In this document: positions 45,012 through 60,527 of the stretch, one piece after another
Layout of the letters: each line of letters starts with the position of its first letter
How positions within the stretch are numbered: position 1 is the first letter of the stretch
Assembly: GCA_037131105.1 (NCBI GenBank)
Contig: JBAXRQ010000001.1
Span: 637,465 to 701,464 of the forward strand
Direction: 5' to 3'
Length of the DNA stretch: 64,000 nt
Source: a bacterium
GTDB lineage: Bacteria > Patescibacteriota > UBA1384 > CAILIB01
Program-made: the position numbers and the translations under genes
The notes under the pieces: model-generated
The model's database searches: none
What the model saw: only the letters and a program-made list of their open reading frames with translations
Told to the model about the DNA's origin: nothing

Positions 45012-45032
45012 AATCCCTCTTTTAGATAATAA

Positions 45033-46067: not shown

Positions 46068-46919
46068 TCAGCCAGCAACGGCTTTGGCCAGTAATTGCTG
46101 CAGCAAAGGCGGATTCGCCATCAGCCTGTCGTGCATGCCGAGGTCGGCGTACACTGCGCGCCCGGTGATCCTACAAACTGGAGAAAGCAGCTCACAGGCG
46201 CCCTCGCCAATCACCTCCCTCGCACGCTCCTGGGTCCACCCGACTTCCTGTTCGTACACTGTGCACATCGCGTCGAAGCCTTCAATGACCCGGCCGGCCA
46301 TACTCTTGACCGGTCCTGTTATTAAGACATTGAAACGGAAGCCCGGGGCCGGCGGCTGCCGGGCACAGTCTAGCGTCCATTTCTCCAAAGCTGCCTTCAT
46401 GGGACCCATGGCGCCATAACCGGGCCAGGTAAAGGCATTGTCAGAACCAAGAGCAAGGAATGAGGCGTTGTCCGCCCACACCTTATGCCCGATCCCCGCT
46501 TCGATCATGTTCCGGAAACCGAGTACGTTCACCTTAAACCCTTCAAGGTACTCTTCTGGGGTGGCATGAAACATGTCTCCCCCGATAATCGACTTGGGGC
46601 CGCCGGCGACGGCAAAGACGTACCCACCAAGAACCACTCCCTGTGCCGCCAAGCCTGCGAAAAGCGCATCAACGCTCTCCTCGTTGGCAACGTCGCATTC
46701 CAGAACGGTGGAATCAAGCAGATGCTGCGCATCTTGCACGGTACCCGCCCACCGGTCAGTCCGTTCTGGCTTCCGGGCCGTTCCCATAACGAGGCCCGGT
46801 CGGGTGGAGGTATACATCACTGTTTTTCCATTTTTCACCTCACGATGCCCGATGATCAGCCCAAGACCACCACCGCGGCAGCCGCTAATCAAAGTGACCC
46901 CATTACTAACGCTTTTCAT
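46068..46919 (-). CDS. enoyl-ACP reductase-like SDR (FabI family)
   Basis: VLECDVANEESVDALFAG, YGAMGPMKAALE (the Y-x6-K catalytic pair of FabI) and RFNVLITGPVKSMAG. Confidence 0.65.
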   Translation of the reverse strand: MKSVSNGVTLISGCRGGGLGLIIGHREVKNGKTVMYTSTRPGLVMGTARKPERTDRWAGTVQDAQHLLDSTVLECDVANEESVDALFAGLAAQGVVLGGYVFAVAGGPKSIIGGDMFHATPEEYLEGFKVNVLGFRNMIEAGIGHKVWADNASFLALGSDNAFTWPGYGAMGPMKAALEKWTLDCARQPPAPGFRFNVLITGPVKSMAGRVIEGFDAMCTVYEQEVGWTQERAREVIGEGACELLSPVCRITGRAVYADLGMHDRLMANPPLLQQLLAKAVAG

Positions 46920-46997
46920 GCCTGTCTCCTTTCTAATCGAACAGGCAGATACTAGCAGGTTTCCCTACTCTTTGAAAGCACTTATGGAAGCTTACTA

Positions 46998-47669
46998 TCA
47001 TTGAAAGACATGCTCCCCGAAGAACAGCTCTTCAGGCGAGGTGCGTTCCAGTTGCTCCACCACCTTAGCCAAGGCTGGGAAATACTCAGACTTGGCCAGC
47101 TCGGCCTGGTCCAGCTTCTTCCAGAACGCCTGGCCATGGTACTCACCCGGACGTAACTCGCCTCCTTTCACTATTCCGCGATACACCAGGCTCAGCACCG
47201 CATTACTAACCCCGTCGTCCTCAAGAGTCGTGGAGATCACCGTCCCGGCATAGTGAAGACTAGCAGTCAGACCTGTCTTGGCCATCAGCTCCCCCTGGGC
47301 CTGCTCTAGCACCGGCTCCCCGGCCCGCACTAGTCCCGAAGGGAAGCCCACCAACCCGTCAAAGGGCTGCCTGCCCTGCCTGAACAGCAGCCACTCGCCG
47401 GACTCATTCTTGCAGGCGATGTCTACCAATATATAGGGCTGCTCGTGGGGCTGCAGGGTCTCGCTGCTCAGCGCCTCGACGTACTTCTTCCCGCCAGAAG
47501 TCAGGCCGTAGCCTCCCTCCACCTTCTCCACCAGTCCCGCTGCCATCACCTCGCGCAAATGGTACATGAAGACATTGCCCTCCACATCCTTGGGACGCAG
47601 CTCCGAATAGCGCCGGGGCGAGCGCTTGAGCAGTGAGGTCATAATGCCGTGCTGGGTGGGATGTGTCAT
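46998..47669 (-). CDS. winged-HTH plus degenerate NUDIX-fold fusion protein
   Basis: N-terminal MarR/ArsR-like wHTH (SLLKRSPRRYSELR...VEKVEGG). C-terminal GLVGFPSGLVRAGEPVLEQAQGELMAKTGL is Nudix-box-like with substitutions. Start chosen at MTHPTQ. Confidence 0.45.
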   Translation of the reverse strand: MTHPTQHGIMTSLLKRSPRRYSELRPKDVEGNVFMYHLREVMAAGLVEKVEGGYGLTSGGKKYVEALSSETLQPHEQPYILVDIACKNESGEWLLFRQGRQPFDGLVGFPSGLVRAGEPVLEQAQGELMAKTGLTASLHYAGTVISTTLEDDGVSNAVLSLVYRGIVKGGELRPGEYHGQAFWKKLDQAELAKSEYFPALAKVVEQLERTSPEELFFGEHVFQ

Positions 47670-47782
47670 TATCTCCAGGTTAGCAGATGGGAGATATTCG
47701 TCGAGTCGAGAACTGTCGACTAGATGGGCCGGACCTATGGCGACTAGGGTGAATGTATCCGATCGGAACAAAGGAGCACACC

Positions 47783-48340
47783 ATGTGGAAGACAGTCATT
47801 ACACAGGCAGGGTTTTTCGGAAAGAAGCGGGCGGATATCTATGCAGGTTATGACGATCAGTTTGGCGCCGGGAAGTGGCGAGTGGCTTGGGAGATCCCTA
47901 CGGATGCCAGCAGCGTCATTACCGACATGGCAGGCGTCATGGCCCTTTACGAAGACGCCTACTTCGCCCATTTGCAGAGTAATCCGGAATTGTTGGCCGA
48001 GCTGACCGCCGCCGCCAGCAACGTCTACGACGACGCGTCCAGCAACGTGGGCTCCGGATTCGACTATACGATCCAGGAGACGAACCTGAACCATCTGCAC
48101 GACATCGCCATCCGGCGATCAGTGCTCCGCCTTGGAACCTGGTTCCACGGCGAGGAATTAATCCAGATCCGCGGCTCCAAGAGCCAGCATCCGTTAAGCA
48201 AAGAACTTTCGCCTGGAGTGGTGCCGTTTCATCTGTCGCGTCTCATCCGGAAGCCGGAGGTAATTGGCTGGTGGAAGGAAGGGTCTATCGAGGCTTTCTA
48301 CCAGTCTGGGAAGATCGTCCAGCAGTGGACTGAAGAGTAA
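47783..48340 (+). CDS. hypothetical protein
   Basis: AAGGAG Shine-Dalgarno 6 nt upstream of the MWKTVITQ start; no recognisable domain. Confidence 0.4.
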   Translation: MWKTVITQAGFFGKKRADIYAGYDDQFGAGKWRVAWEIPTDASSVITDMAGVMALYEDAYFAHLQSNPELLAELTAAASNVYDDASSNVGSGFDYTIQETNLNHLHDIAIRRSVLRLGTWFHGEELIQIRGSKSQHPLSKELSPGVVPFHLSRLIRKPEVIGWWKEGSIEAFYQSGKIVQQWTEE

Positions 48341-48444
48341 AGGAGAAAAGATTTGAGAGAGGGGGCAGCAATGCCCTCTCTTTCCCGTGGCCACCAACCC
48401 CTGATTCTGTTAGGATAAGTGCAGGAAATGAAGGGGGATTTAAC

Positions 48445-49041
48445 ATGTCGAAAGAGTTACAGATGCGTGTCGGACACGGTGCGCAACCTGAAGTAGGACC
48501 TGCCTGGGCGCCAGTGTGGGTAGCAGAGAACGTTGCAATGCTTCCTTTCCAGTACGCTGCCCAAGCAGGGCACGTACACTGGATCTTTGACCTTGACCGA
48601 GTGCTACTCCCTGCCCCACAGCTGGTGGGACTCAGATGGAGAGTATGCCAGGACTTTTGCCAGGCAATTCATGATGCACAGGTAGCAGGATACATACAGA
48701 ATGCCGCCATTGTCACCAACGTAGCCTTTCCGTTGCCCCAGCTCGTACTTCGCACGAAGTCGGTGGGACGTCAGCTTGGTATTGAGAACATAGTCCGGCT
48801 CTACCTCTACAAAGGAAATATGAAGCCGCATCCCTGGGGTGGTATGCGGGCCATGGAAATGATGGGCTCTACGCCGGATACCACCATATTCTGCGGCGAC
48901 ATGATCAGCAAAGATGGTCTGTGCGCCAAGAGCTGTGGCATTCCATTCGTGCACGTCCAGCCATATGGGCCTAATCCCCTCTGGAAGCAAGCTATCGAGC
49001 AGCTTCCCAGACTGCTACCCGCCCGACGGCGTTCAGCATGA
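48445..49041 (+). CDS. HAD-superfamily hydrolase-like protein
   Basis: WIFDLDRVLL (motif I DxD) and TIFCGDMISKDGLCAKSCG (motif IV GD...D). Confidence 0.5.
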   Translation: MSKELQMRVGHGAQPEVGPAWAPVWVAENVAMLPFQYAAQAGHVHWIFDLDRVLLPAPQLVGLRWRVCQDFCQAIHDAQVAGYIQNAAIVTNVAFPLPQLVLRTKSVGRQLGIENIVRLYLYKGNMKPHPWGGMRAMEMMGSTPDTTIFCGDMISKDGLCAKSCGIPFVHVQPYGPNPLWKQAIEQLPRLLPARRRSA

Positions 49042-49325
49042 CATCGACGCACTAAATGAGCGTCACCAACAAGAACTTCTGGGAAGAGGCACGCACCTGC
49101 GGCCTCTTCTTTCAGTTAAGCCCCTGGTAATAAAATAGTGCTCAGAGAGGCTTGACGGTCGCTTCCGCCGCCTTTCGCTTCGTATTGAAGCGGCGTCGGA
49201 GCGCTGCGCTAACCCCGCTCTTTGCTCCGCAAAGTTTGGTTTTGGCGTGGTGCTCGTGCTCCTGGTATTTCCAGGAAGCGGTGGAGCAGGGCGGAACTCC
49301 TCGGGTTCAAACCTCCTTCACGGAC

Positions 49326-49361
49326 AAACAAAAAGACCCACTAAAGTGGGTCTTTTTGTTT
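49326..49361. terminator. perfect 16-bp-stem hairpin (A/U-rich) followed by a copy of the tRNA-Pro 3' terminal 16 nt
   Basis: aaacaaaaagacccac-taaa-gtgggtctttttgttt, then tggtcggggagagagg, which is the same sequence as the 3' end of the tRNA at 49523. Confidence 0.5.
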
Positions 49362-49486
49362 GGTCGGGGAGAGAGGCCAAACGGTTAGTCCTCGCTGCCG
49401 CGCCGACAGCACGGGTTGATCCGCTCGGACACTAGCCGCCCCTCCCGGACCGGCGTCGCCTACGGTTCAAATCCTCTTACCGTTAC

Positions 49487-49523
49487 AGAGAAAAAGAACC
49501 AACATAGTTGGTTCTTTTTCTCT
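49487..49523 (-). terminator. perfect 17-bp-stem hairpin abutting the CCA end of tRNA-Pro(GGG)
   Basis: agagaaaaagaaccaac-ata-gttggttctttttctct; identical to the copy at 56108-56144. Confidence 0.6.
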
Positions 49524-49599
49524 GGTCGGGGAGAGAGGATTTGAACCTCCGGTCTCAGGACCCCCAGCCCTGCGCATTAGGCCACTATGCTACTCCCCG
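49523..49599 (-). tRNA. tRNA-Pro (anticodon GGG), CCA encoded
   Basis: Manual cloverleaf: acceptor CGGGGAG/CTCCCCG, D-arm GCAT-AGTGGCCTA-ATGC, anticodon arm CAGGG-CTGGGGG-TCCTG, variable loop AGACC, T-arm GGAGG-TTCAAAT-CCTCT, discriminator A, then CCA. Confidence 0.8.
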
Positions 49600-49846
49600 A
49601 GGTGAACGCAGACGAAAACGTGTTTTCGGCTATGTGAGCCGAGGGGTCTTGCATACAGAGTATGCTACTCCCCGAAGCGAGATAGAAAAGAAAGCTAGCT
49701 TTCTTTTCTGTGAGCGAGGGGATCCGCCGTGCGAAGCACGGTGCTACTCCCCGCTGTTTGTCATTGGCGTTTCGACGAGGGGATGCTTATCCGTAGGATA
49801 AGTCCCCCGAGCCTGTTTAACACCTTTAAGAGTAGCCGTTTTTCCT

Positions 49847-50767
49847 TTATTTGGCAATTATATCCTTCAACTCCTCCGCCCTGGCCTTCATAATCTTCCT
49901 CTGCCCCTCTACCTGCGCCTTTTGCTCCTCCACCAGTTCCAGCCTCTCCCTCTCATTCTTCTCCAAGATACCTATTTTCTCCGCCAACTCCTCGTGCCCG
50001 CTCACCCGCCGGAAATCATCCGCTTTCATAAGGACCTCGAACCTGTCGTAGCGTCGATCAGTAAACGCCACCATCCCGTTCAGGCAGTATTCCCAATACC
50101 GCTGTGACAGCATTCCCGCCTCATAGTAACTGGGATCCGAGATCACCAAGCCGTATTTAGCCTGCGCATAAAGCTCCTGCAATTCGTTAAAGGTAAGTCG
50201 TCCCCGCATCTTGGGGCCCTCGCCAAACACCGGCGACGAGCTGACGATGGCCGAAACGTACGCATTCTCAGGATTAAGGTAGTCAAGGTAATCGATATCC
50301 CGGCTCCCGTCTCGCTTACCGCCGCCGTAGACCAACTGCAACGCCTTGGTCTCGCCTGAGTGATCCAGAAGATAGAGCACCACCGCCCCCTCAAAGCCCG
50401 CATACAGAAAGTCGGACCGATCTGACTGGGGAATCTGGGTTAGCTTGAGGTGCGGCCCCAGTACACTGTCTGGGATGACCAGGTTAAGGTCGGAGACCAT
50501 TTGAAAGATCTTGACTCCCCGCTCAATCAGACCTTCTGCCTGCCCATGAAAGCTGGGGTTACAGTTGTTAATGAGCACCGTGTCCCCGGATCGTAGCTCC
50601 TCCGCCCCGTCGATGGGTTCGGCACCCAGATAGTCCACACAGTAGCGCAGCTCGCTCATTCCCCCGAACGTGGTAACATCCCCCTTTGACTGCAAAAGCT
50701 CGCGCAGCTTAGCGCCGGGCTTCCAGATTTTAAGACTCATAGTCGTATGAATAGGTATGCTTGGCAT
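49847..50767 (-). CDS. hypothetical protein with a C-terminal coiled coil
   Basis: 306-aa ORF (alternative start at 50740, MSLKIW); no confident family. Confidence 0.4.
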   Translation of the reverse strand: MPSIPIHTTMSLKIWKPGAKLRELLQSKGDVTTFGGMSELRYCVDYLGAEPIDGAEELRSGDTVLINNCNPSFHGQAEGLIERGVKIFQMVSDLNLVIPDSVLGPHLKLTQIPQSDRSDFLYAGFEGAVVLYLLDHSGETKALQLVYGGGKRDGSRDIDYLDYLNPENAYVSAIVSSSPVFGEGPKMRGRLTFNELQELYAQAKYGLVISDPSYYEAGMLSQRYWEYCLNGMVAFTDRRYDRFEVLMKADDFRRVSGHEELAEKIGILEKNERERLELVEEQKAQVEGQRKIMKARAEELKDIIAK

Positions 50768-50839
50768 TTAGTCTAGCATATACGAAAAGCACATCCGGAC
50801 CGGCTGGATGTGCTTTGTCGACCGCTCCCCGAGGGGAAG

Positions 50840-51112
50840 CTATTGAAATGCATGGCCGTGAGGCTGACCATAGTCCATCGGCTGATTTGGGGTAAAACTC
50901 AGGGCAGCATACTTCTGCCTTAGCCGAGAATAGGTCTCGTGGTCCATTCTGACGATACAGCAGTCGTCGCCCCTCATCTCAACCTGGATGACGTCTGTCT
51001 CGTGAAACAGCCTCGAGACCATTGCCTCTTGGCCCTTCTTACCGGTGACCAGATGCTCCTGCAGACTGGTCGGGACGAACAAGCTAAAAAAATTACGCAA
51101 CCATTGCCACAT
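50840..51112 (-). CDS. small protein with a Phd/YefM-antitoxin-like core
   Basis: QEAMVSRLFHETDVIQVEMRGDDCCIVRMDHETYSRLRQ resembles the Phd/YefM N-terminal pattern; no toxin partner nearby. Confidence 0.3.
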   Translation of the reverse strand: MWQWLRNFFSLFVPTSLQEHLVTGKKGQEAMVSRLFHETDVIQVEMRGDDCCIVRMDHETYSRLRQKYAALSFTPNQPMDYGQPHGHAFQ

Positions 51113-51170
51113 GCTGCAACCTCCTCGAAAGTAGAACTTGCCTGAAGAGTACCGTTTATTATCCTTCCAG

Positions 51171-52067
51171 TCAATCCGCTACTCGAATGAGTGCGGCAAT
51201 AAACTCCTCATAACTGATCCCCGCCTGGGGCAGCTCCATGGGCAGCAGCGAGGTCTTGGTCATGCCTGGTAGGGTATTGATCTCAATGAAATACGGCGTC
51301 CCGTCCTCGGAAAGCATCCAGTCAGCCCGGGCATACTGCCTCAGTCCCATTTCCTTGTATATAGTAGCCGTCTCCTGCTGGACCCGGTCGGAGACTTCCT
51401 TTGATACCGGCGCTGGACAGATGTCCTCGCTCTCGCCAGGAGTATACTTAGCTTCGAAATTGAAGAACTCATGCTTGGGCCGGATCTCTACTAACGGTAA
51501 GGCCTGCAAAGTACCAAACACGTCTATGACGCCACAGGTAAGCTCCGTGCCTTTGATGAATTCCTCCACCAAGATATCGACGCCAAAGCTCCTGGCAAAC
51601 TTCACAGCCTCATCCAGGGCCGAGGCGTCCTTAACGATAGTAACGCCAAAGCTGGAGCCCTCTCGGTCCGGCTTTACCACCGCCGGAAAGCCGTGCTCCC
51701 AGGTAACAGGCTCATCTCCGCTATAGGCGACCGAAAACGGGACCTTGATCCCCAGCTTCTCCACCACCTTTTTGGTGGCCGTCTTGTCTATGGCAAACCT
51801 CGAGGAGGCAGAGTCCGATCCGGTGAACGCTATTCCCTTCTCAGCTAGCAGACCCTGGACGGTGCCATCCTCACCAAAAGGACCGTGCAAGGCGATGACT
51901 ACAATCCGGGGCTTCAGGGCCACCACCTGCTCCAGCCAGTCAGTATCAGCAGCATCGATCTCTCTGTATTCCTCACCCAGCTGGATAAGTACCGTGGCAA
52001 CTGACTGGGCCGTCCATAATGAGACTTGGCGCTCGGACGAGTTTCCCCCCTTGAGAATGATGACCAT
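51171..52067 (-). CDS. ddl: D-alanine--D-alanine ligase
   Basis: ATP-grasp fold; HGPFGEDGTVQGLLE, the C-terminal FIEINTLPGMT motif, and LPMELPQAGISYEEF. Confidence 0.9.
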   Translation of the reverse strand: MVIILKGGNSSERQVSLWTAQSVATVLIQLGEEYREIDAADTDWLEQVVALKPRIVVIALHGPFGEDGTVQGLLAEKGIAFTGSDSASSRFAIDKTATKKVVEKLGIKVPFSVAYSGDEPVTWEHGFPAVVKPDREGSSFGVTIVKDASALDEAVKFARSFGVDILVEEFIKGTELTCGVIDVFGTLQALPLVEIRPKHEFFNFEAKYTPGESEDICPAPVSKEVSDRVQQETATIYKEMGLRQYARADWMLSEDGTPYFIEINTLPGMTKTSLLPMELPQAGISYEEFIAALIRVAD

Positions 52068-52183
52068 GTGCTGAAGTTAGGACTGGTGGGTCGTATCGGA
52101 GTCCCCATGGTACCACGCCAAAGGCTTGAGGGACAGGCCGGCCCCTGCTACCATCAATGCAACGACGAAAAAGGAGAGCTGCC

Positions 52184-52447
52184 GTGAAGATCGCCCTACT
52201 GTTAGTGTCGTACCCCATCCTGCTGGCCGGACTGACGGTTGAGCTGCGCTTGGTAAGCGAACTTGGTCAATATTCAATTGTCGTCGCCGCCCTGCTTCTT
52301 GCCTTTGGCACCGTGATTGCCTATGGCAATGACCAGGACTGCAAAGCCCCCGCCGAAAAGAAGCCTCCTCTGGCTGTGCGATTTCAATCCCTATCTCCGA
52401 AACGGCTTCTCACGAGGCTGTCCCCGACCCGACTCGGCCACCCATAG
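52184..52447 (+). CDS. small membrane protein
   Basis: GTG start 5 nt after an AAGGAGAG Shine-Dalgarno; two TM helices. Confidence 0.35.
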   Translation: MKIALLLVSYPILLAGLTVELRLVSELGQYSIVVAALLLAFGTVIAYGNDQDCKAPAEKKPPLAVRFQSLSPKRLLTRLSPTRLGHP

Positions 52448-52516
52448 CGGTGGCCGACCTGTTTTTGTGAGCATCGTATTGGAATATGTGTGTGAGAGGC
52501 GTATGGTCTACCTATC

Positions 52517-52807
52517 ATGATCACCGTCTATTCCTCCCCCCACTCTGACGAGCTCAACCTTCTAAAGGGCTTTCTTGAAGCGCATGGCATTGTCACCCTC
52601 AAAAAGGGTGGCGGAAGAGACGATCCGACTCCTTATCTGTGCCTAGTGAACGACGCGGACGCTGAGAAGGCCGCCGACCTGGTGGCCAGCTGGAAGGAAC
52701 GGGAAAAGAATTCGGCGCCATCGAATCCGCGCCGGTCGCCTCTTCGTATGTATCTTCCTTATTTCGTACTCATCATTGCTCTGGCCGCCATAGCCTATTT
52801 TCTTTAG
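52517..52807 (+). CDS. DUF2007-like small protein with a C-terminal TM helix
   Basis: VYSSPHSDELNLLKGFLEAHGIVTLKKGG resembles DUF2007 (putative signal-transducing) proteins. Confidence 0.35.
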   Translation: MITVYSSPHSDELNLLKGFLEAHGIVTLKKGGGRDDPTPYLCLVNDADAEKAADLVASWKEREKNSAPSNPRRSPLRMYLPYFVLIIALAAIAYFL

Positions 52808-53379
52808 ACGGCTTGCTTCTTTATTTGTTTCTCAAAGGTAAGCAGGTCAAAGGACAACTCATCGATGCCATTCATCTCATAGACCTGGAAGGCTGAACAG
52901 ATCTTCTTATCGTTGGGATCCAAGCCGAGTAGTCCGATCGCCTCATCGACCTGTTCCCAGGTTGTGGCCTCAATCTCCAGGTACGGCTTAAGCAGCGGCC
53001 AGTGGTCGATGTCAAACTCAATCTCTCCCAGCGTGTAGCAGGTGCGCCGGTTCTCTTCATAGAACTTCTGCTTCATGCCGATCTTCTCAAGAAAGGTCCA
53101 AGCGGCATCGAAGTCACTGACTGTCATTTCTACCTCGTCCATGCCGGCGTCGTTGCCGTTCTTATCAGGCTCCAGACGCTGTTTGAACCCCATGGTCACC
53201 TTGTCGCCCTCGTCGCGCACCCGGATCCAGGCGCTAGCCTCGTTGAGACGCAGGTCTGGGTAGTCGTAGACCTTGCGACGATAGAGGCGCTCGAACTGCT
53301 TCACAGCGCCGATAGCCACCAGCTTGGCCTCCATGGCAGACTCATCAATGTCGAGGAATTTTACTTCAATTTCTTGCAT
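52804..53379 (-). CDS. CYTH-domain protein
   Basis: N-terminal MQEIEVKFL ExExK signature; 191 aa. Confidence 0.7.
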   Translation of the reverse strand: MQEIEVKFLDIDESAMEAKLVAIGAVKQFERLYRRKVYDYPDLRLNEASAWIRVRDEGDKVTMGFKQRLEPDKNGNDAGMDEVEMTVSDFDAAWTFLEKIGMKQKFYEENRRTCYTLGEIEFDIDHWPLLKPYLEIEATTWEQVDEAIGLLGLDPNDKKICSAFQVYEMNGIDELSFDLLTFEKQIKKQAV

Positions 53380-53420
53380 CTCGTTAAAATTAACCTGCTA
53401 TTTCCAGGATTTGAAAAGAG

Positions 53421-53849
53421 TTATTGTTTTCTAGTACCACGGCAGGAAGGATAGCCAACACAACCCCAAAATGCTCCTCGTTTACCCGTCCTTCTAACCA
53501 TTGGCCGTCTACAGGTAGGGCATAAAGGCGTAACGCCAGTACTCTTTTTGTCTTTTTTATCCCCAAACATCGAGGCAATACCTATCCATCCCAGATATCC
53601 GCCGCCCAGTATTGCCCACCAGTAATCTTCCCAAAAAGTGTGCTCTTTTTTAGCAACAGTCACACCTGAGCTTTCAGACCCACAATAATTGCTATGCCCG
53701 GTATCTCCACAGACGTAGCTACCTGAATCCGAGGGACATGAATGCCAACGATGGCACCCTGATCGGTGAGCTTCAACTGATAGTACTCCTACAGAAAATA
53801 TATAAACGAGTGGCAAAAAGACAATCAGGTACCAATATATTCTTTTCAT
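53421..53849 (-). CDS. secreted/membrane-anchored protein with a Cys/His-rich module and a C-terminal topoisomerase-type C4 zinc finger
   Basis: Signal peptide MKRIYWYLIVFLPLVYIFSVGVLSVEA; HRSGCHRWHSCPSDSGSYVCGDTGHSNYCG; C-terminal CPTCRRPMVRRTGKRGAFWGCVGYPSCRG (zf-C4_Topoisom pattern). Confidence 0.5.
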   Translation of the reverse strand: MKRIYWYLIVFLPLVYIFSVGVLSVEAHRSGCHRWHSCPSDSGSYVCGDTGHSNYCGSESSGVTVAKKEHTFWEDYWWAILGGGYLGWIGIASMFGDKKDKKSTGVTPLCPTCRRPMVRRTGKRGAFWGCVGYPSCRGTRKQ

Positions 53850-53917
53850 CAGTAAACTGTAACAACTAAGCACCCCCCCTTACAACCAACCATAGAGCAA
53901 CAATCTAGACCTAGGGC

Positions 53918-55387
53918 CTAGCGGGCAACGAATACAATGGCGTTCGGCAGCGCCCGGCCCGGGCCCACTTTATAGGCTCCCTGGTAATACAGCGCGCTGG
54001 AGCCGCCCCCGTCGAGGTTCATGGCGCTGTCCACGCCTAGGGCGTCCATGATAGCGGCCAGATCCGGGACAGTGGCAGAAGAAGCGACCACCGCGTAGAC
54101 TGTCTGCCCCTTCAGGCCAAGGGCTCCGCGGTTGGACTTGGTGCTGCGCTGTTTGTCATCCATCTCGCTGTCCTGCAGAGTGATGCTGCCGCCTTCCACC
54201 AGACGCGGGCCAGAGTTTACGCCGGCATAGGCCGCGAAACCCGATGACTTGTACGAGGTCCAACTGGAGAAATAACGGGCGGTGCCGCTCGAGTCAAAGC
54301 CGATGAACGGTTCAGGCTCAAAGGACCCGTTGTTCTGGTTGATCATGACCCCCACCCGGGTATTCTTCACCTTATAGAGGAACGAATTGGTCTTGCCCGA
54401 GCAGTCGGCGTAATCCGGCGGACAGAAATAGGTGCCATTTATTCCTCCGAAGCCACCGTTTGCCTGGACGTAGGACTGCAGAGACTTGGCGGCGCAGCCG
54501 TTGCTGCAGTCACTGTCATTGCCGGTGTCGGTAGCCACCTTGGCCTTGCCGCTGCCGAGATCTACGGTAAGCAAGCTGATGCTGAAGCTCCCCCGGCTGG
54601 TGGCCACGGTCTTTCTCTCATAAGAGCTGAACCCGTTGGACTGGGTGACGGCAGGAGTAGGAGTGGCAGTGGGCCGAGGCGTAGCCGGCGGGGTCTTGGT
54701 AATGGCGATATCCTTGCTGAGCTGCTGGGTGGCGGCCAAGGCAACCGTCTGTTTGACGCTCACATAGCCGGACTTGGAAACGGTCAGAGCATAGGTTCCG
54801 GCCGGTATCCTTGCCGTATAGGTTCCGTCCACCGCGGTGGTAGCGGTAGTGGCAACAGAGTCTAGCACCAGTGAAAGGGTCACGCCCTCTACCGGCTTGG
54901 CCGATTCAGTCACCTTGCCGGAAAGCACTGCCTTCTGGGCTTCCAAAGCGCCTGCAGCCGCGGCGTCTTGCTCGGCTTTGGCGGTTACTGCGGCGTCATC
55001 GGCTTTCTTGGCAGTAAGCGCAGTTTCCAGAGTTGCCAGTATATGTGCCGAGGCCGCGTCCTGCCCCTTGTAGTCACCTTTCTTGAGAAGTGCCTTGACC
55101 ACCGGTTCTTGGGCAGTGGCCTCAGACACCTCTATCCCCTGGGCGGCATAGGCGTCGATCGAAGCGACAAAGGCGCGGTACTTTTTAGAGGCGTCCGCGT
55201 AGGCGCTAAAGGCGACTTGGTCCGAGGCGACCTTCTTCTGGGCAGCATCATTCTGGTGGCGAGCGTAGATGACAAGTGAGACTGAGCCGGCACAGAGAAG
55301 GAGCAGAAGGAAGTAGACGGCGAAACGAAGCCGCTGGCGGACCAGAAAGGCTAACAACGGCGAGTGCGATGGGTGAGAGGTGGCCAT
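53918..55387 (-). CDS. membrane-anchored phosphodiester glycosidase family protein (NAGPA/DUF2233) with a carboxypeptidase-regulatory-like domain
   Basis: Start chosen at MATSHPSHS, followed by a TM helix. CarbopepD_reg-like GVTLSLVLDS...DGTYTARIPAGTYALTVSKSGY. C-terminal NLDGGGSSALYY typical of DUF2233. Confidence 0.6.
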   Translation of the reverse strand: MATSHPSHSPLLAFLVRQRLRFAVYFLLLLLCAGSVSLVIYARHQNDAAQKKVASDQVAFSAYADASKKYRAFVASIDAYAAQGIEVSEATAQEPVVKALLKKGDYKGQDAASAHILATLETALTAKKADDAAVTAKAEQDAAAAGALEAQKAVLSGKVTESAKPVEGVTLSLVLDSVATTATTAVDGTYTARIPAGTYALTVSKSGYVSVKQTVALAATQQLSKDIAITKTPPATPRPTATPTPAVTQSNGFSSYERKTVATSRGSFSISLLTVDLGSGKAKVATDTGNDSDCSNGCAAKSLQSYVQANGGFGGINGTYFCPPDYADCSGKTNSFLYKVKNTRVGVMINQNNGSFEPEPFIGFDSSGTARYFSSWTSYKSSGFAAYAGVNSGPRLVEGGSITLQDSEMDDKQRSTKSNRGALGLKGQTVYAVVASSATVPDLAAIMDALGVDSAMNLDGGGSSALYYQGAYKVGPGRALPNAIVFVAR

Positions 55388-55479
55388 GGATCTACAGTAT
55401 ACGGGATCCAGGGATATACGCCTAAAGCAGTGTGACGAATGTGGTATTGTGGCGTTAATAGGCAATCCTAAGACCATAC

Positions 55480-55983
55480 ATGAACTACACCTACTGCCCC
55501 CAGTGCAAACACCCCCTGGAAACCCGCAAGAATTCATTCTACTGCCCCAGCTGTGACCTGGAGATATATCAGAACTCCAAGCCGTGCGTGTCGGTGCTTA
55601 TCGTCAAGGACGGGAAGGTACTATTGGCCAAACGCGGGATTGAGCCATATAAGGGGAGCTACGATACGGTAGGCGGGTTCCTCAAGTATGGCGAACCAGC
55701 CGAAGTCGGCGCCTTACGCGAGACCAAGGAAGAGACCGGACTTGACGTGCGTCTCATTGAAATACTGGGGACCTACATCAACCAATACGGCGAGAACGGC
55801 GTCTACACACTCGATGTGGACTTTATCGCCGAAATAACCGGCGGTGAGATGCAGGCGCAGGACGATGTGGCAGAACTAGAATGGGTGGACATCCACGACA
55901 TTCCGTTTGAGGAGATCAGGTTTGCCTCAGCGAAGAAGGGGTTAGAGGATTTGCAGAAATGGTACGAGGCAAAAAATAGCTAA
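55480..55983 (+). CDS. NUDIX hydrolase with an N-terminal zinc ribbon (NudC-like)
   Basis: CPQC...CPSC ribbon, then Nudix box GGFLKYGEPAEVGALRETKEETGL. Confidence 0.75.
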   Translation: MNYTYCPQCKHPLETRKNSFYCPSCDLEIYQNSKPCVSVLIVKDGKVLLAKRGIEPYKGSYDTVGGFLKYGEPAEVGALRETKEETGLDVRLIEILGTYINQYGENGVYTLDVDFIAEITGGEMQAQDDVAELEWVDIHDIPFEEIRFASAKKGLEDLQKWYEAKNS

Positions 55984-56107
55984 TAGTGGGAATAGATTAA
56001 TCGGTTAATCCTCGCTGCAGCGCCGACAGCGCTGATGGCTTCCGCTCGGACACTAGGACCGCCTCCCGGCGGGCCGTCGCCTGCGGTTCAAACCCTCTTA
56101 CCGTTAC

Positions 56108-56144
56108 AGAGAAAAAGAACCAACATAGTTGGTTCTTTTTCTCT
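56108..56144 (-). terminator. perfect 17-bp-stem hairpin abutting the CCA end of tRNA-Pro(CGG)
   Basis: Identical sequence to 49487-49523. Confidence 0.6.
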
Positions 56145-56220
56145 GGTCGGGGAGAGAGGATTTGAACCTCCGGTCTCGGGAACCCGAATCCCGCGCATTA
56201 GGCCGCTATGCTACTCCCCG
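56144..56220 (-). tRNA. tRNA-Pro (anticodon CGG), CCA encoded
   Basis: Same acceptor, D- and T-arms as the GGG copy; anticodon arm CGGGA-TTCGGGT-TCCCG. Confidence 0.8.
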
Positions 56221-56826
56221 GAGAGAACGTCGGGGAAAGCTTGCTTTCACCGATGTGAGCGAGGGGAGGTGCCCACCGAAGGTGGGTGCTACTCCCCGAG
56301 GAGAAATGATGGCGGCCATGCTTGCATGGACATCAGCATTTCGACGAGGGGATGCTCGTCCGTAGGACGAGTCCCCCGAAGCGAGTTGTATTCGGGAAGG
56401 TGGGTGCTACTCCCCGACATTGTATTTTGAAGGATAAGTCCCCCGAGGCGATATTAGAAAGAAGGACTATTTACTCGAGGTACTCGTCTGCCCCGTGGCG
56501 CTACTCATAGACAACAGCAGCGAAGCACCCATTAACCAAATGGAAACTATTACCACCAAAATAATAACCAGCGCCTTTTTCATAATCCCGGCGACATAAA
56601 ATAAAAAGAAGGTGGCTTATCGCTAGAGCGTAGGCGGCCCTAATGGCCAAGTGGGTACTCTCACGCCCGCTCCACGGAGCCGGCAAATATCGAGTTCCCG
56701 TAATACATGAATTGATGACCACCTACGACAGGATAAGCCGCTTATAGAGTACCCTATTTACCCCTCTGTGGCAATCGATCAATACACTGTGTTTACCCCT
56801 TCCCTGGCACTTGCTATACTTATGGA

Positions 56827-59151
56827 ATGAATCACGGTTTCGCTATACAACATTGTCGTATCGTTGCGCCCGAGAGGCTTTCTGACCGCTTTTTAGCCTC
56901 CGGAGTCTTTTTTCAACAGGAGAGCGACAGCGGTCTTGACGACCAGGTCATGCTGGCTTATGTCCTGGAGATCAGTAAACCATGGTTTCCCTCTTCGAAA
57001 GTCCTCCCCTCCTTACTTGAGACCCTGCACACCCAGCACATAGCCCTCAGCTCCAAGCGCGACCTCGGCGACCAATTCGAACTCCTGCTGCGCTCTATCA
57101 ACCAGCAGCTCAACGCCATTTCCGAGCAGGGTGAGACCGACTGGATAGGAAACCTGAACGGCCTAATCATGGTGGCCAGTGGCGATGAGATTCACTTCTC
57201 CCAGACCGGACAAAGCCCCGCCTATCTTCTGCAAAAAAACCGTATTCGCCAGATCACTGACGACACCGGCCACGAGCGCGAGCCCCATCCTCTTAAGACC
57301 TTTGCCAACCTTGCCTCCGGCAACCTGAAAGCCGACGATTATATCCTCGTCTCAAACCGCGAGCTCTATAACGAAGTCTCCCTCGATGCCTTGCGCCGGG
57401 TAATGAACAACAACACTCCTACCGCCGCCTGCCAGTCTATTGTCAAAGAACTCAAGCGCGACAAGAACCTGGCTGTCTCTACCATCATCCTCAAGGTTGC
57501 CTCAAAAGCGGAGGCCAGCCACAAGCACGCCGCCGAGATACATGAGATTATTCTTGAGGATGAGATGCAGAGTAGCTTTAGAAAGGCCCAAAAACGGATA
57601 ATGCCCTGGGTCCAGGTGGGCAAGCGACATTCAGCCACCATTGGCAGGGCCGGACTGAAGGCAGCCAAGACTACCGGCACCGTCATGAAGGAGAAAGTTG
57701 CTCCCAAAGCCGCCGACCTGCTCAACAAAGGCGCGGATCATGCCGTCCAGCTTAAGGGACAGATCGCCGAACGGCGTCAGCATCGTCGTGAGGCTCCTGA
57801 AGAAGAACTTCCCGTAGTCGAGATCATCCTGCCAAAGGCCCAGCGCGAAGCAGCTGCAGAGGCTTCTGTTGCTCGCTTTGAAGCTCCCCGGCTTATCCCT
57901 GATGAAGAGCTGGCTCTGAGCTCATCACATAAGCTCAAGCGGGCACCAGGGGTACCCCTTCCCACCCGCATCCTCAGCTTCTCACGCAATTGGCTGCGCT
58001 CACCCCAGCACAAGCGGCTGGCCGCCTTAACCGTCGCAGTCCTGCTGGTTGCCTTCACCGTGCTTACCGCCATTTCCCGCAGGCAGCCCAGCGCCTCAAC
58101 TACCCCCGACAACCAAATTTCCAAGCAATTAGCCCAGGCCGCTGATCTCCAGAAAAAAGCTGCCAATGCCCAGAAGCTCAACCAACTAGTCGAAGCAAGC
58201 AAAGAGATAAAGCAGGGCGAGGACATTATCAATGGTCTGACCGGACTGACCGCCGATCAGAAGAAAGAAGCTGACGCTACCTGGAAGCTACTAAGCGACG
58301 TAGGAGACTCTCTCAGCACCACTACCCGTCTAGCAGGTACAGCGACCACCTACAAGTTCACTACTGCCAGCCAAAACCTGGTGGCAAGCCTTCCCTTCTT
58401 CTACGGCTCTTCTTCTACGGTAAACGGTCTGCTGCAGACCGGGCAGGGCGATGCCAAGACCATACAACAAACTATTTCCCTGCCCGAAAGTGACGACAGC
58501 ATCGTGAGCATTGCCTCCAGTAGCGAAAGCGATACCGCCGGCTACGCCCTAACCAAGAAGGACAAGGTTTACCGTATCGCCCAGAGCGGAAGCACCACCT
58601 CACTCCACGTCATTGCACCCACCTCTGGAAGCTTCGCCCCTGGGGACGACATCGCTAGCTATAACGGCAATGTCTATATTCTCGACGGTACTACCGGCCT
58701 GCTCTGGAAATACACCAACGGAGGCACTACCTACAGCAAGGGGGTCAGCATCATCGATACTACCAAATATGACATTAAGAAAAGCGTGTCGGTGGCTATC
58801 GACGGTTCGATATATATCCTGAAGCAGGACGGCAGCCTGATGAAGTTCACCAGCGGCGCAGAGGACACCTCATTCAAGATCAAGAGTCTACCTACCCTTT
58901 CGGCAACGCTCACCCAGCCGGTCCAGGTGATCACCAGCGTCGACATGGATGAGATCTACGTTTTGGACGCAGGCGTCAGCAGTGGGAATCATTCTACAGT
59001 ACGGATACTAGTCTTCGACAAGACCGGTCTCTTCCTACGCCAATATGCCTTCCCAGACAGTATGCTACAGGTCCAGGCCTTTGCCGTGGACGCCAGCGCC
59101 AAGAAGATCTGGCTTCTCAGTGGATCAACAATAAGTGAATTCCCCTTTTAG
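56827..59151 (+). CDS. large single-pass membrane protein: N-terminal cytoplasmic PP2C/SpoIIE-like domain (tentative), TM helix, extracellular beta-propeller-like repeat domain
   Basis: TM helix LAALTVAVLLVAFTVLTAI near aa 395. The N-terminal region ...MVASGDEIHFSQTGQSPAYLL...DDYILVSNRELY resembles the SpoIIE-type phosphatase core. The C-terminus has repeated VYILDG/IYILKQDG/IYVLDAG strands. Confidence 0.45.
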   Translation: MNHGFAIQHCRIVAPERLSDRFLASGVFFQQESDSGLDDQVMLAYVLEISKPWFPSSKVLPSLLETLHTQHIALSSKRDLGDQFELLLRSINQQLNAISEQGETDWIGNLNGLIMVASGDEIHFSQTGQSPAYLLQKNRIRQITDDTGHEREPHPLKTFANLASGNLKADDYILVSNRELYNEVSLDALRRVMNNNTPTAACQSIVKELKRDKNLAVSTIILKVASKAEASHKHAAEIHEIILEDEMQSSFRKAQKRIMPWVQVGKRHSATIGRAGLKAAKTTGTVMKEKVAPKAADLLNKGADHAVQLKGQIAERRQHRREAPEEELPVVEIILPKAQREAAAEASVARFEAPRLIPDEELALSSSHKLKRAPGVPLPTRILSFSRNWLRSPQHKRLAALTVAVLLVAFTVLTAISRRQPSASTTPDNQISKQLAQAADLQKKAANAQKLNQLVEASKEIKQGEDIINGLTGLTADQKKEADATWKLLSDVGDSLSTTTRLAGTATTYKFTTASQNLVASLPFFYGSSSTVNGLLQTGQGDAKTIQQTISLPESDDSIVSIASSSESDTAGYALTKKDKVYRIAQSGSTTSLHVIAPTSGSFAPGDDIASYNGNVYILDGTTGLLWKYTNGGTTYSKGVSIIDTTKYDIKKSVSVAIDGSIYILKQDGSLMKFTSGAEDTSFKIKSLPTLSATLTQPVQVITSVDMDEIYVLDAGVSSGNHSTVRILVFDKTGLFLRQYAFPDSMLQVQAFAVDASAKKIWLLSGSTISEFPF

Positions 59152-59284
59152 GAAGTCTTAGTCCGGCGCCTTTCGGCGTTAAAAGCTCCGTCTTTCGATC
59201 AACGTACCCACAAGTACGTCTCACTCAAGTACTCGCTTTTCTCTTGAAATGCGCTCGACCGAAGCCTTCCTATGGTGCGGAAGT

Positions 59285-60487
59285 TTAAACGAGGCGGATA
59301 AAGCGCCGCTTGCCGACCTGAAGTACTAGGCCGGTTGTTAGTTCTATCTCTTCATTAGTATCAGTAATGGTACGATCGTTCACCCGTACGCCTCCCCCAT
59401 CAATAAGACGGCGGGCCTCTGAACGGCTCGGAGCAAGCCCAGTAGTAACCAATAGGTCGACGATGGCCGTAGCACCTTGTAACTGTTCGATAGAAAAATC
59501 AGGGATTTCCTCAGGCTTGTTGCCCTCACTAAATTGGCTAATGAATGCCTCGCGCTGGTGGGCAGCCTCATCATCGCCATGGTAGAGAGCTACGACAGTC
59601 TGGGCGAGCTCAAGCTTGAGGTCACGCGGGTTCTCACCTGAAGCAACGCGCTTTTCAATCTCCTCCTTGGAAAATGGCCGGGCTGAGAGTGGAATGATCT
59701 GAAGGTATTCGCCCATCAGCTCATCAGCCACCCGCATCAGCTTACCGAACTTGTCCTGTGGTGTATCAAGGAGAGAGATTATATTACCCCAGCTTGAGCT
59801 CATCTTGCGTCCATCAGTACCAGCAATAAGAGGATTGGTGATGACCGCCTGGGCTGGCTGTCCTGCCTGCTCCTGGAGCGTACGCCCAGCCAACAAGTTA
59901 AAGCGCTGATCGGTGCCACCAAGCTCGACGTCTGCCTTGACCATGACCGAGTCATAGCCTTGCATGAGAGGGTAGAGCATTTCACGAAGACTGACCCGAG
60001 AGCCACCCTCAAGACGACGGGCGATAAGCTCGCGCTTAATAAAGGTGTTGACTGAAAAGGCGTCAGCCAGGTGACCCAGAGTACCCAGCGAGAGCGTGCC
60101 AAGCCATTCACTGTTGTAATGGATGTGTACTTGGTCCTTGCGAGCCGGATTCAGGATCATCCAGAGCTGCTCAAGGTACTTCTCAAGGTTCTTTTGTATG
60201 GTGGCTTCTTCCAGCATGGGGCGCTCGGCATCCTTGTCTGACGTATCGCCGATCTGGCCGGTAAAGTCACCGATGATAAGGTGGATCTCATGGCCGAGCT
60301 CCTGGAAGGCACGCAGACGCCAGACCGGAATGGAGCGGCCGAGATGGATATTGGGACTAGTAGGGTCGATACCAAGCTTAACTCGAAGAGGTCGGCCCGA
60401 CTTCAGGCCCGCCATCAAGCTCTCTGCGCCGATAATTTCATCGACACCGGCCTCTAGAATATCTTCCTGGGTAAAGGTGAGTTCCAT
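59285..60487 (-). CDS. tyrS: tyrosine--tRNA ligase
   Basis: GIDPTSPNIHLGR (HIGH-type), KMSSS (KMSKS), and a C-terminal S4 domain. Start chosen at MELTFTQEDIL; the track ORF uses an upstream TTG. Confidence 0.9.
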   Translation of the reverse strand: MELTFTQEDILEAGVDEIIGAESLMAGLKSGRPLRVKLGIDPTSPNIHLGRSIPVWRLRAFQELGHEIHLIIGDFTGQIGDTSDKDAERPMLEEATIQKNLEKYLEQLWMILNPARKDQVHIHYNSEWLGTLSLGTLGHLADAFSVNTFIKRELIARRLEGGSRVSLREMLYPLMQGYDSVMVKADVELGGTDQRFNLLAGRTLQEQAGQPAQAVITNPLIAGTDGRKMSSSWGNIISLLDTPQDKFGKLMRVADELMGEYLQIIPLSARPFSKEEIEKRVASGENPRDLKLELAQTVVALYHGDDEAAHQREAFISQFSEGNKPEEIPDFSIEQLQGATAIVDLLVTTGLAPSRSEARRLIDGGGVRVNDRTITDTNEEIELTTGLVLQVGKRRFIRLV

Positions 60488-60527
60488 ATCTGTTACATTA
60501 CACATTATTCTGCTATGCTTCAATCAT

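Follow-up and report, generated by a model that had tools for sequence, protein, structure and literature searches.

Two long direct repeats, each carrying a tRNA-Pro gene, bracket about 6.2 kb of the small genome of an uncultured patescibacterium, and the locus raises the question of whether the bracketed DNA is unstable, is foreign, or simply lies between two similar genes. The locus was analysed within a 64,000-nt stretch of DNA (the window). A sequence-only reading had proposed the repeats as substrates for RecA-mediated deletion or duplication of the interval or, alternatively, as bounds of a tRNA-targeted island remnant, and had predicted that the locus is structurally polymorphic. The repeats themselves were confirmed: ARAGORN, Rfam, a repeat search and alignment agree on two long blocks in the same orientation, with tRNA-Pro genes of anticodons GGG and CGG. 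The elements that make up or adjoin the tRNA genes are:

49523-49599, minus strand: tRNA-Pro, anticodon GGG (copy A; ARAGORN; Rfam tRNA RF00005, 60.7 bits)
56144-56220, minus strand: tRNA-Pro, anticodon CGG (copy B; ARAGORN; Rfam tRNA RF00005, 61.9 bits)
49473-49556 and 56094-56177, no strand: 84 bp of perfect identity (longest common substring)
49486-49524, no strand: terminator hairpin T1, copy A (inverted repeat I1 of 39 nt; a palindrome that includes an A-run and a T-run)
56107-56145, no strand: terminator hairpin T1, copy B (identical to copy A)
49377-49485, minus strand: trailer, copy A (~100 nt; alignment, folds)
55996-56106, minus strand: trailer, copy B (alignment, folds)
49361-49376, minus strand: orphan fragment of 16 nt that copies the 3′ end of tRNA-Pro; plus-strand sequence TGGTCGGGGAGAGAGG (exact-match search; repeat family D2)
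49330-49360, no strand: second terminator hairpin, T0 (repeat family D2; sequence)

Both tRNA-Pro genes form a cloverleaf with an anticodon and score above the curated Rfam gathering threshold for RF00005 (29), as expected of bacterial tRNA genes. Each lies within a block of ~440 bp, the blocks being 6621 bp apart in direct orientation. The repeat search returned a direct repeat of 220 nt with 86% ungapped identity (49420-49639 versus 56041-56260), upstream of which more repeat pieces occur in a shifted register. Gapped alignment enlarged the blocks to about 49377-49812 and 55996-56446, with 77-86% identity and indels outside the 84-bp core. This core, which takes in the trailer start, T1 and 34 nt of the tRNA 3′ end, is the only long homologous recombination substrate of the two blocks. 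Each block is made up of tandem leader modules of ~78 nt, the tRNA with the identical 39-nt T1, and the trailer. The 11-mer at the tRNA 5′ end, CGGGGAGTAGC, occurs nine times in the window at no more than one mismatch (1.3 expected), and all six exact copies fall within the two blocks.

The trailer of copy A opens with 14 nt of the tRNA T arm in inverted form (49464-49477 versus 49534-49547), and folds better on the minus strand (-45.7 vs -32.0 kcal/mol), with weak z-scores. T0 is a paralogue of T1, with 79% identity over 47 nt including the 16-mer, and the changes in its stem are compensatory. Both hairpins are missed by a terminator consensus scan because their A- and T-runs pair; a consensus scan revealed no promoter. 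A T1-like hairpin also follows the tRNA-Pro(CGG) gene of a relative (contig L131). Searches of the flanks with the Rfam 15 covariance models matched the tRNA alone at gathering score, and nothing credible was found at E ≤ 10 over 49050-49860 and 55980-56830, where the miRNA and sRNA “matches” were the terminator hairpins. Proposals made by eye that the trailer is SRP RNA, tmRNA, RNase P RNA or 5S rRNA were dropped for want of a model match, and a small arginine-rich ORF was dropped because the spacing from Shine-Dalgarno sequence to start is too short. A trailer profile gave a weak nhmmer match in contig L090 (5729-5792, E 2.6e-4), which is not relied on; single-sequence searches of that region gave E values of 0.02-0.8 only, with no Rfam match there. 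The conserved RNA that neighbours the locus (56612-56738) has good support as a candidate new family of RNAs for this clade.

The interval between the blocks spans about 6.2 kb (49813-55995, no strand; delimited from ORFs, Pfam and composition), and its genes lie within 49847-55983:

49847-50767, minus strand: glycosyltransferase-like gene (Pfam Glyco_trans_1_2, E 4e-9)
within the interval: a 90-aa ORF (ORF list)
51171-52067, minus strand: ddl (ORF list and domain search)
within the interval: two 96-aa ORFs (ORF list)
52804-53379, minus strand: CYTH gene (Pfam)
53421-53873, minus strand: Zn-ribbon protein gene (Pfam)
53918-55537, minus strand: NAGPA-family gene (Pfam)
55480-55983, plus strand: Nudix gene with an N-terminal zinc ribbon (Pfam)

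The earlier gene list was correct for ddl and for the CYTH, NAGPA, Nudix and zinc proteins. The label “coiled-coil” gave way to the glycosyltransferase match, and “Phd/YefM-like” was not upheld for the 90-aa ORF, which has no Pfam match at E ≤ 0.01. No integrase, phage or transfer gene was detected in the interval (Pfam scan of 8 of the 9 ORFs; the domains of ddl were found in a separate search). The GC content of the interval is 54.75%, compared to 54.80% for the window, and its tetranucleotide distance ranks 15 of 58, under the median. The ddl gene, normally essential, is the only one within the 64-kb window, and deletion of the interval is therefore expected to be counter-selected. A search of genome contigs with ddl returned distant relatives only, at no more than 43% identity, and was uninformative on synteny. 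Its match to the window in composition and the presence of ddl argue against an island remnant; the interval is best read as ordinary chromosome, part of the core genome.

The arrangement in the population was judged on assembled contigs, not reads, from six other assemblies, whose contigs match the window at 100% identity; deletion or duplication alleles at low frequency could escape such data. One contig (L086, assembly ERZ27300165) equals window positions 49523-64000 and spans both repeats and the interval. Contigs L002-L004 span copy B, L139 covers 49527-54523 and L140 covers 49574-50921. Two further contigs of ERZ27300165 depart from the window at the same point. The first (L134) equals window 38445-49528 and then runs into foreign DNA with an ORF for an XRE repressor (HTH_3, E 7.6e-14), while the second (L001) begins in foreign DNA with an ORF ending in TFGRGERI and a stop codon and equals the window from 49523 onward. 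The two share only:

49523-49528, no strand: TGGTCG at the tRNA 3′ end, the core of the inferred attB (L134 and L001 versus the window)

The site is occupied in a co-occurring strain of ERZ27300165 and empty in the window, with a shared core of 6 bp, as expected of an integrative element with a large serine recombinase. The 60 nt around TGGTCG are identical at copy B (core 56144-56149). We take the junction between T1 and the tRNA 3′ end to be the attB of an integrative element whose two ends encode, respectively, a Cro/C1-type repressor and a serine-type integrase. Each junction contig holds just 190-250 bp of foreign DNA, so the size and unity of this element, and the membership of both ends in one element, are things that we infer.

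The putative integrase fragment on L001 comprises the last 69 residues; it has no Pfam match and no BLASTP similarity to the integrase of L088, a contig from a relative, except for the tail encoded by the tRNA. L088 carries a complete large serine recombinase of 531 aa with Resolvase, Recombinase and Zn_ribbon_recom domains, which matches PHROG 95 (integrase) at E 4e-47 and ends in GRGERI and a stop codon inside tRNA-Pro(GGG), at the same TGGTCG. The reading frame closes within the tRNA sequence in both L001 and L088. A 70%-identical homologue of the L001 ORF on contig L133, read further upstream, matches PHROG 95 at a weak E of 4.6e-4; this truncated copy runs off the contig, and its last residues (TLGR) fit the same insertion point. 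The PHROG 95 match of this homologue, together with the position shared with L088, weakly suggests that the L001 fragment belongs to the serine recombinase family. The integrase would then catalyse the insertion. The reconstructed attP appears to lie within the 3′ end of the integrase gene, and integration would therefore replace its last ~26 codons. No second tRNA fragment marking the far end of the L088 element was found within 4.8 kb of L088 sequence, and no description of serine integrases at tRNA-Pro in Patescibacteria was found in the literature.

That the ~450-bp repeats act as RecA substrates, such that the population holds alleles with the interval deleted or tandemly duplicated, is improbable. 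The orientation is direct and the 84-bp core provides long uninterrupted identity, a length sufficient for RecA-dependent exchange; however, the recombinant junctions that would identify a recombinogenic repeat in the population, whether of deletion or of duplication, are absent from the contigs of the six other assemblies, L086 runs intact through both copies, the blocks beyond the core are diverged and broken by indels, and loss of the interval would remove the only ddl of the window. Short assemblies do break at the repeat, and Logan contigs end inside the 84-bp core, but a contig that ends at a repeat is expected assembler behaviour and is uninformative on alleles. The predicted polymorphism survived in part, as an element at the 3′ end of tRNA-Pro(GGG) in ERZ27300165, while neither the proposed mechanism nor the 6.2-kb segment is involved. 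It is scarcely credible that the interval is what remains of a genomic island targeted to a tRNA, with tRNA-derived repeats as its bounds. Such an origin would accord with the use of tRNA-Pro genes as integration sites in this clade, and gene content between the HhH-GPD gene and the 774-aa gene does vary among distant relatives. Against it, the interval does not differ in composition from the rest of the window, the content is housekeeping, the bounds are two complete and different tRNA genes with leaders rather than a tRNA and a 3′ fragment, both tRNAs are needed isoacceptors conserved in relatives, and the interval does not contain the one real att-like fragment (49361-49376). It is also very improbable that the ERZ27300165 insertion, instead of being a site-specific integration, reflects chimeric assembly or a transposon that duplicated a 6-bp target. 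Both contigs stop shortly past the junction, and a 6-bp direct repeat at both ends is also compatible with target-site duplication. Yet two independent contigs of one sample leave the reference at the same 6 bp and run into typical lysogeny-module genes, the integrase gene of L088, from an unrelated sample, reaches the same base of the same tRNA, and the truncated L133 copy and the frames closing in the tRNA agree with that point.

Upstream of each tRNA lie the leader modules, of which copy A has three and copy B two and two halves:

49600-49674, minus strand: module A1 (CGGGGAGTAGCA, hairpin, CCCCTCG, two small hairpins; fold z -3.71)
49675-49753, minus strand: module A2, type 2 (fold z -4.11)
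49754-49812, minus strand: module A3, type 3 (fold z -2.2)
56221-56298, minus strand: module B2, type 2 (fold z -3.50)
56299-56379, minus strand: module B3, type 3 (fold z -4.42)
56380-56446, minus strand: half modules B4h (5′ half of the B2 type) and B5h (5′ half of the A3 type)

The modules are about the length of a tRNA and start with tRNA nucleotides 1-12. Fold z-scores range from -2.2 (A3) to -4.4, and are at or below -3.5 in the other four full modules. B5h is identical to 49795-49811 over 17 nt. Two modules are present in L088 and one each in L131 and L136; within the 64 kb, modules occur upstream of the two tRNA-Pro genes only. The structure varies in a compensatory manner. The type-2 stem is CCGTGC/GCACGG in A2, CCCACC/GGTGGG in B2 and TATCGC/GCGATA in L131, so that five of the six pairs are doubly substituted with pairing fully kept, and the type-3 stem is CTTATCC/GGATAAG in A3 versus CTCGTCC/GGACGAG in B3. 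The arrangement expected of an RNase P substrate or tRNA-like processing element, an acceptor-like helix stacked on a hairpin, is found, with an outer stem GGGG(A)/(U)CCCC and an inner stem of 6-8 bp. A T-loop or elbow and a 3′ RCCA, also expected of such an element, are absent; the modules have triloops (UUC, UAC, UCU, AGA) and the 3′ sequence UCGCUCACA. A metagenome search for CGGGGAGTAGCA followed by CCCCTCG returned 40 loci, of which those in L119 (same genome) and L131 are real and the remaining 38 are chance matches in unrelated GC-rich DNA. In viral contigs, neither the module pattern nor the trailer core was found, apart from a chance match (L092), and no description of such leader modules was found in the literature.

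In form, each module resembles a minihelix, copying the acceptor stem of the tRNA and adding a single hairpin. Whether they do anything was weighed against the possibility, which we consider unlikely, that the flanks are functionless and the modules are decayed tandem tRNA-Pro copies (pseudo-tRNAs) or recombination scars, their perfect stems owed to unequal crossing-over and templated quasi-palindrome correction rather than to selection. The stems are nearly all Watson-Crick (0-2 G-U per ~25 pairs in 8 of 9 modules), and neither G-U pairs nor minimum free energy indicates a consistent strand bias; since either strand folds equally, DNA palindromes or templated quasi-palindrome mutation fit as well as an RNA function. 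The varying number and order of modules, the half modules, and the tRNA-like length and start are likewise in keeping with such an origin. Unconstrained decay should, however, have erased several features, which counts against it: the 3′ part of A1 is identical to its counterpart X2 in L088 at 44 of 47 nt (94%) whereas the protein neighbouring the L088 modules is only 55% identical to that of the window, the stems vary around a conserved TTC loop and conserved flanking motifs, and the outer stem in L136 (GGAGA/TCTCC) tracks the acceptor stem of its own tRNA (CGGAGAG). At the other extreme, the modules might constitute an undescribed class of tRNA-linked RNA element, in which co-evolving minihelix mimics are co-transcribed with the tRNA and act in its maturation or control, the cassette doubling as a phage landing pad. 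This we regard as quite unlikely. Were it so, the modules could offer RNase P further entry sites or decoys, or could be an alternative partner for the tRNA 5′ strand, and together with T1 and the inverted T-arm copy of the trailer could form a self-contained tRNA-Pro cassette on which serine-integrase phages land.

The two tRNA genes are best read as old paralogues. The tRNA-Pro(CGG) of L089 equals that of the window over 72 nt, where the contig ends, and the tRNA-Pro(GGG) of L090 differs from that of the window by one base; neither contig has leader modules. Because these distant relatives carry the same two sequences without repeated flanks, the two tRNA-Pro genes are not recent duplicates. 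The CGG gene adjoins a homologue of the 774-aa gene in L089 and L131 too. The blocks are best viewed as the genes of two old isoacceptors that share one cassette in this lineage of Patescibacteria, in the order of tandem leader modules, tRNA, bidirectional terminator T1 and trailer. The likeness of the flanks most likely arose when the identical tRNA 3′ halves seeded a partial duplication or a gene conversion, and the orphan 16-nt fragment with T0 (49330-49376) may have been left as a scar when the same site was rearranged earlier. As a best guess, and the weakest step, the tRNA transcript may include the modules as hairpins that aid its processing or stability. We consider this overall explanation probable: old isoacceptor cassettes flanking an ordinary ddl-bearing interval, a T1/tRNA junction that serves as attB, and leader modules that may act as processing or stabilising hairpins.

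For genome scanning, these findings indicate that long direct repeats around genes do not alone mark a segment as unstable; what repeats here is a pair of isoacceptor tRNA genes whose flanks have been homogenised, and the interval belongs to the core genome. Of positive use is a defined pair of empty and occupied attB sites for a serine-type integrase in Patescibacteria, a group with, to our knowledge, few described temperate elements and no genetic tools. With a 50-bp attB, an attP that can be reconstructed and the integrase family, the components for an integration vector are in place. The leader modules add a small unexplained structure with clear compensatory variation.

Several known systems resemble parts of this locus. 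As in REP/BIME elements, the modules are short near-perfect palindromes with a conserved head containing GTAG, in tandem in intergenic DNA; unlike those elements, they occur in the 64 kb only upstream of the two tRNA-Pro genes, their GTAG is tRNA positions 7-10, and no RAYT-type transposase was seen nearby. tRNA-like processing signals include plant mitochondrial t-elements, the mascRNA of MALAT1, and acceptor/T-arm minihelix substrates of RNase P. The modules resemble these in having the acceptor 5′ strand and a matching 3′ strand around a short hairpin, giving a helix of ~12-13 bp, and most are preceded, as the tRNA is, by a pyrimidine-rich leader with U at -1. They differ in lacking a T-loop, discriminator and CCA, in their unpaired C1, and in standing in tandem upstream of the tRNA that they imitate, and there is no such family in Rfam 15.

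The orphan 16-nt tRNA-Pro 3′ fragment, 146 bp downstream of the intact tRNA in the same orientation, recalls islands targeted to tRNA genes by tyrosine integrases, although only those 146 bp (T1 and the trailer) separate the two, with no integrase. In a mycobacterial survey, the integrases whose attB overlapped a tRNA gene were of the tyrosine type, and those of the serine type used other sites (PMC10654092). Compared with temperate phages and integrative elements of the large serine recombinase type (phiC31, Bxb1, TP901-1), the target here is different, being a tRNA 3′ end with a terminator, and the reconstructed attP would lie inside the 3′ end of the integrase gene. Several features are shared: the L088 protein has the Resolvase, Recombinase and Zn-ribbon domains, the integrase gene stands at the element end beside the att site while the opposite end carries a Cro/C1-type repressor, and a short core alone is common to the occupied and empty sites.

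Two contigs from sample ERZ27300165 agree perfectly with the window as far as a single position, beyond which they diverge. One of them (L134, 391 kb) corresponds to window positions 38445-49528 and continues into foreign DNA, CCCTGATGCAAG..., that contains a Cro/C1-type HTH ORF (PF01381, E 7.6e-14). The other (L001/L086) is foreign over its first 188 nt and matches the window from 49523 on. The 6 bases common to both contigs, TGGTCG, are the complement of the tRNA 3′ CGACCA; therefore, the ERZ27300165 strain carries an element between the terminator hairpin T1 and the tRNA 3′ end, and the window is the empty site. One tRNA-Pro gene was shown to be an integration site for a putative serine-integrase element, carried by some cells of the population. 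The sequence-only reading had predicted a structurally polymorphic locus, which held for the insertion at tRNA-Pro(GGG) in ERZ27300165, but not for deletion or duplication of the bracketed interval, neither of which was present in the contigs. The features concerned are:

49523-49599, minus strand: tRNA-Pro(GGG), in repeat copy A
56144-56220, minus strand: tRNA-Pro(CGG), in repeat copy B
49464-49477: inverted T-arm copy in copy A (T arm at 49534-49547)
56085-56098: inverted T-arm copy in copy B (T arm at 56155-56168)
9830-10245 of JBBTYZ010000017.1 (GCA_038061595.1), another Patescibacteria MAG: truncated homologue of the foreign ORF (L133)

The attB site would span the right arm of T1 and the acceptor/T-arm 3′ strand of the tRNA (~49505-49552), a stretch with GGTTC...GAACC dyad symmetry centred beside the core. 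Copy B is a second potential attB, because the same 60 nt are present there; it was unoccupied in every contig examined. A second terminator hairpin in copy A, T0, forms a partial third copy of the putative site together with a neighbouring 16-mer.

The foreign ORF of L001 ends in ...TFGRGERI*, with the final seven codons coming from the tRNA sequence. Three results suggest that it belongs with the serine-type integrases. In a relative (L088) whose neighbouring protein is 55% identical, a 531-aa protein that combines Resolvase, Recombinase, and Zn_ribbon_recom domains ends in ...SIGRGERI* at the matching base of its own tRNA-Pro(GGG). The L133 homologue shares 70% identity with the L001 fragment. 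It is what is left of a serine-integrase C-terminal region, no more than ~135 codons preceded by a stop codon, and it runs off the contig end at ...TLGR, which matches the start of the tRNA-Pro-encoded tail in L001 and L088. Read further upstream, this homologue matches the PHROG integrase family of the L088 protein (E 4.6e-4, versus 4e-47 for the latter). The remnant suggests that decayed elements may lie at the tRNA-Pro site in other Patescibacteria.

The interval between the repeats (~6.2 kb) was examined for the instability and the foreign origin that had been proposed for it. Its gene labels were confirmed for ddl, CYTH, NAGPA, the Nudix gene with a zinc ribbon, and the Zn-ribbon protein, whereas the "coiled-coil" protein was found to be Glyco_trans_1_2-like and the "Phd/YefM-like" ORF was without a family match. 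The composition check revealed no deviation from the window: GC content is 54.75% versus 54.80%, and among 6.1-kb slices the interval ranks 15/58 in tetranucleotide distance from the window average, closer than most. Same-genome contigs in six other assemblies were retrieved by exact-protein look-ups. L086 (ENA ERZ27300165) runs from 49523 to past 64000 at 100% identity, through both repeats and the interval; three further contigs cross copy B, and two others cover 49527-54523 and 49574-50921. Joins of a B leader to an A trailer, or of an A leader to a B trailer, numbered zero among these contigs, which are assembled, so that rare events would be visible in reads only. Short Logan contigs stop within the 84-bp identical core, but their ends are not evidence of alleles, because assemblers stop at repeats. 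RecA-mediated deletion or duplication is thus unsupported, and so is a tRNA-targeted island remnant, given the host-like composition, the housekeeping-type genes besides ddl, and the lack of mobility genes in the interval. The locus is an ordinary isoacceptor tRNA gene pair with homogenised flanks.

The direct repeats holding the two tRNAs, as the sequence-only reading had described them, were borne out. They are spaced 6621 bp apart, with an ungapped core (49420-49639 and 56041-56260) of 86% identity and, upstream of it, more matching pieces in a shifted register; gapped alignment extends the blocks to ~49377-49812 and ~55996-56446. The longest perfect identity is 84 bp (49473-49556 and 56094-56177). 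In the tRNA sense, on the minus strand, each block consists of leader modules, tRNA, T1, and trailer. T1 is a 39-nt palindromic terminator of the same sequence in both copies. The ~100-nt trailer is ~80% identical between copies, with weak folding z-scores and no match in Rfam. At its start stands the 14-nt T-arm sequence of the tRNA, GGTTCAAATCCTCT, in inverted orientation (matching at 14/14 positions in copy A and 13/14 in copy B), so that T1 lies in the middle of an imperfect palindrome with ~45-bp arms. If transcription reads through, the trailer could base-pair with the 3′ half of the tRNA.

Past the trailer, copy A alone contains a 16-nt orphan copy of the 3′ end of the tRNA (49361-49376) and T0 (49330-49360), a diverged paralogue of T1. 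Between T0 and the terminator of a 198-aa gene lies a ~230-nt GC-rich non-coding stretch (49100-49329), which opens on the minus strand with the trailer motif GAAGGAGGTTTGAACC and was without a match in an Rfam search. Within the PBP1A gene, the tRNA 5′ 11-mer recurs twice on the minus strand, each time with one mismatch and 51 nt apart (61852-61862 and 61903-61913); chance or a repeat in the protein is the probable cause.

The leader modules are tandem units of ~57-81 nt: three in copy A (A3, A2, and A1), and two full modules (B3 and B2) with two 5′ halves in copy B. Each starts with CGGGGAGTAGCA, equal to tRNA nt 1-12, or with CGGGGGA, followed by a 6-8-bp hairpin with a triloop and by (U)CCCCUCG, whose pairing partner is the GGGG(A); the rest of the unit is another small palindrome plus a spacer rich in pyrimidines. 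The modules fold much better than shuffled sequence (z from -2.2 for A3 to -4.4). In the inner stem of A2 (CCGTGC/GCACGG), B2 (CCCACC/GGTGGG), and the relative L131 (TATCGC/GCGATA), 5/6 pairs are altered on both sides and 0 broken, with the TTC loop and flanking motifs constant; comparisons of A3 with B3 and of A1 with X2, a module of L088, revealed the same compensatory pattern. The module of another relative, L136, follows its tRNA, since its outer stem (GGAGA/TCTCC) agrees with the tRNA acceptor (CGGAGAG). The 3′ part of A1 is identical to X2 at 44/47 positions, yet the adjacent protein is just 55% identical.

The compensated stems, the tRNA-matched stem, and the A1-X2 identity are evidence that the modules may be constrained. 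A tentative reading, to which we give somewhat more weight than to the others, is that they are transcribed processing or stabilising hairpins imitating the tRNA acceptor helix. Against a simple RNA reading stand the symmetry of the stems, nearly all Watson-Crick, such that either strand folds equally well, as well as the variable copy number and order and the half modules. The modules might instead be functionless decayed tRNA copies, with their palindromes maintained through templated mutation, which seems slightly less likely, or DNA-level protein-binding sites, which is more doubtful still. The modules and the conserved RNA beside them are the parts worth follow-up.

This candidate, a ~125-nt conserved structured RNA (56612-56738, minus strand), lies between a divergent 774-aa gene and the tRNA-Pro(CGG) leader, and adjoins the homologue of that gene in seven relatives (L088, L089, L090, L131, L135, L136, and L137). 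RNAalifold, run on a set of seven sequences that left out L089, yielded 40 pairs, with compensatory changes in 14; Rfam gave no match at gathering score or E<=10. Between the candidate and the leader modules lies a 38-aa hydrophobic ORF (56467-56583, minus strand), MKKALVIILVVIVSIWLMGASLLLSMSSATGQTSTSSK, and L136 has a comparable small ORF, MKKGVVVAFVVIVILFLSGIFSLLAVTSTAP, in the same position.

Comparison with relatives bears on the origin of the cassette. The tRNA-Pro(CGG) of L089, which adjoins the same 774-aa gene, equals that of the window over 72 nt, where the contig ends, and the tRNA-Pro(GGG) of L090 differs by one base; judged from these sequences, both tRNAs are old. Modules are absent at both of these genes, and the L090 terminator differs. 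The closer relatives have modules (one type-2 module with tRNA-Pro(CGG) and a T1-like terminator in L131, a single one ahead of tRNA-Pro(GGG) in L136, and two in L088), and thus the cassette arose within a subclade; the window lineage has it at both tRNA-Pro loci. A perfect core of 84 bp amid flanks of 77-86% identity would fit gene conversion that started from the tRNA 3′ halves, which are identical, and either a partial duplication or an insertion since decayed would fit the 146 bp separating the two 16-mers of copy A. In four relatives (L089, L135, L136, and L137), the contig breaks off 156-465 bp upstream of the 774-aa gene, in two of them inside the tRNA-Pro gene (L089, 1-72; L136, 1-60) and in two before any tRNA; therefore, repetition or polymorphism of the region may extend to at least some of these genomes.

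When L001:1-194 is joined to L134:11085-11337, the putative attP falls within the 3′ end of the integrase gene. In the excised form the ORF would end in ...GRPDASYLEHLLTWIDQIMKAYEQEDQT*, and in the integrated form it ends in ...GRGERI*, such that integration would swap the last ~26 codons for 5 codons from the tRNA antisense strand, which could tie the form or stability of the integrase to the integration state. A serine-integrase element at tRNA-Pro belongs to a known kind of system. In a survey of mycobacterial prophages, attB sites overlapping tRNA genes were those of tyrosine integrases, whereas serine integrases had short cores and integrated elsewhere than in tRNA genes (PMC10654092). 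The ERZ27300165 element targets a tRNA gene instead, and its target is, by that comparison, somewhat unusual for a serine integrase.
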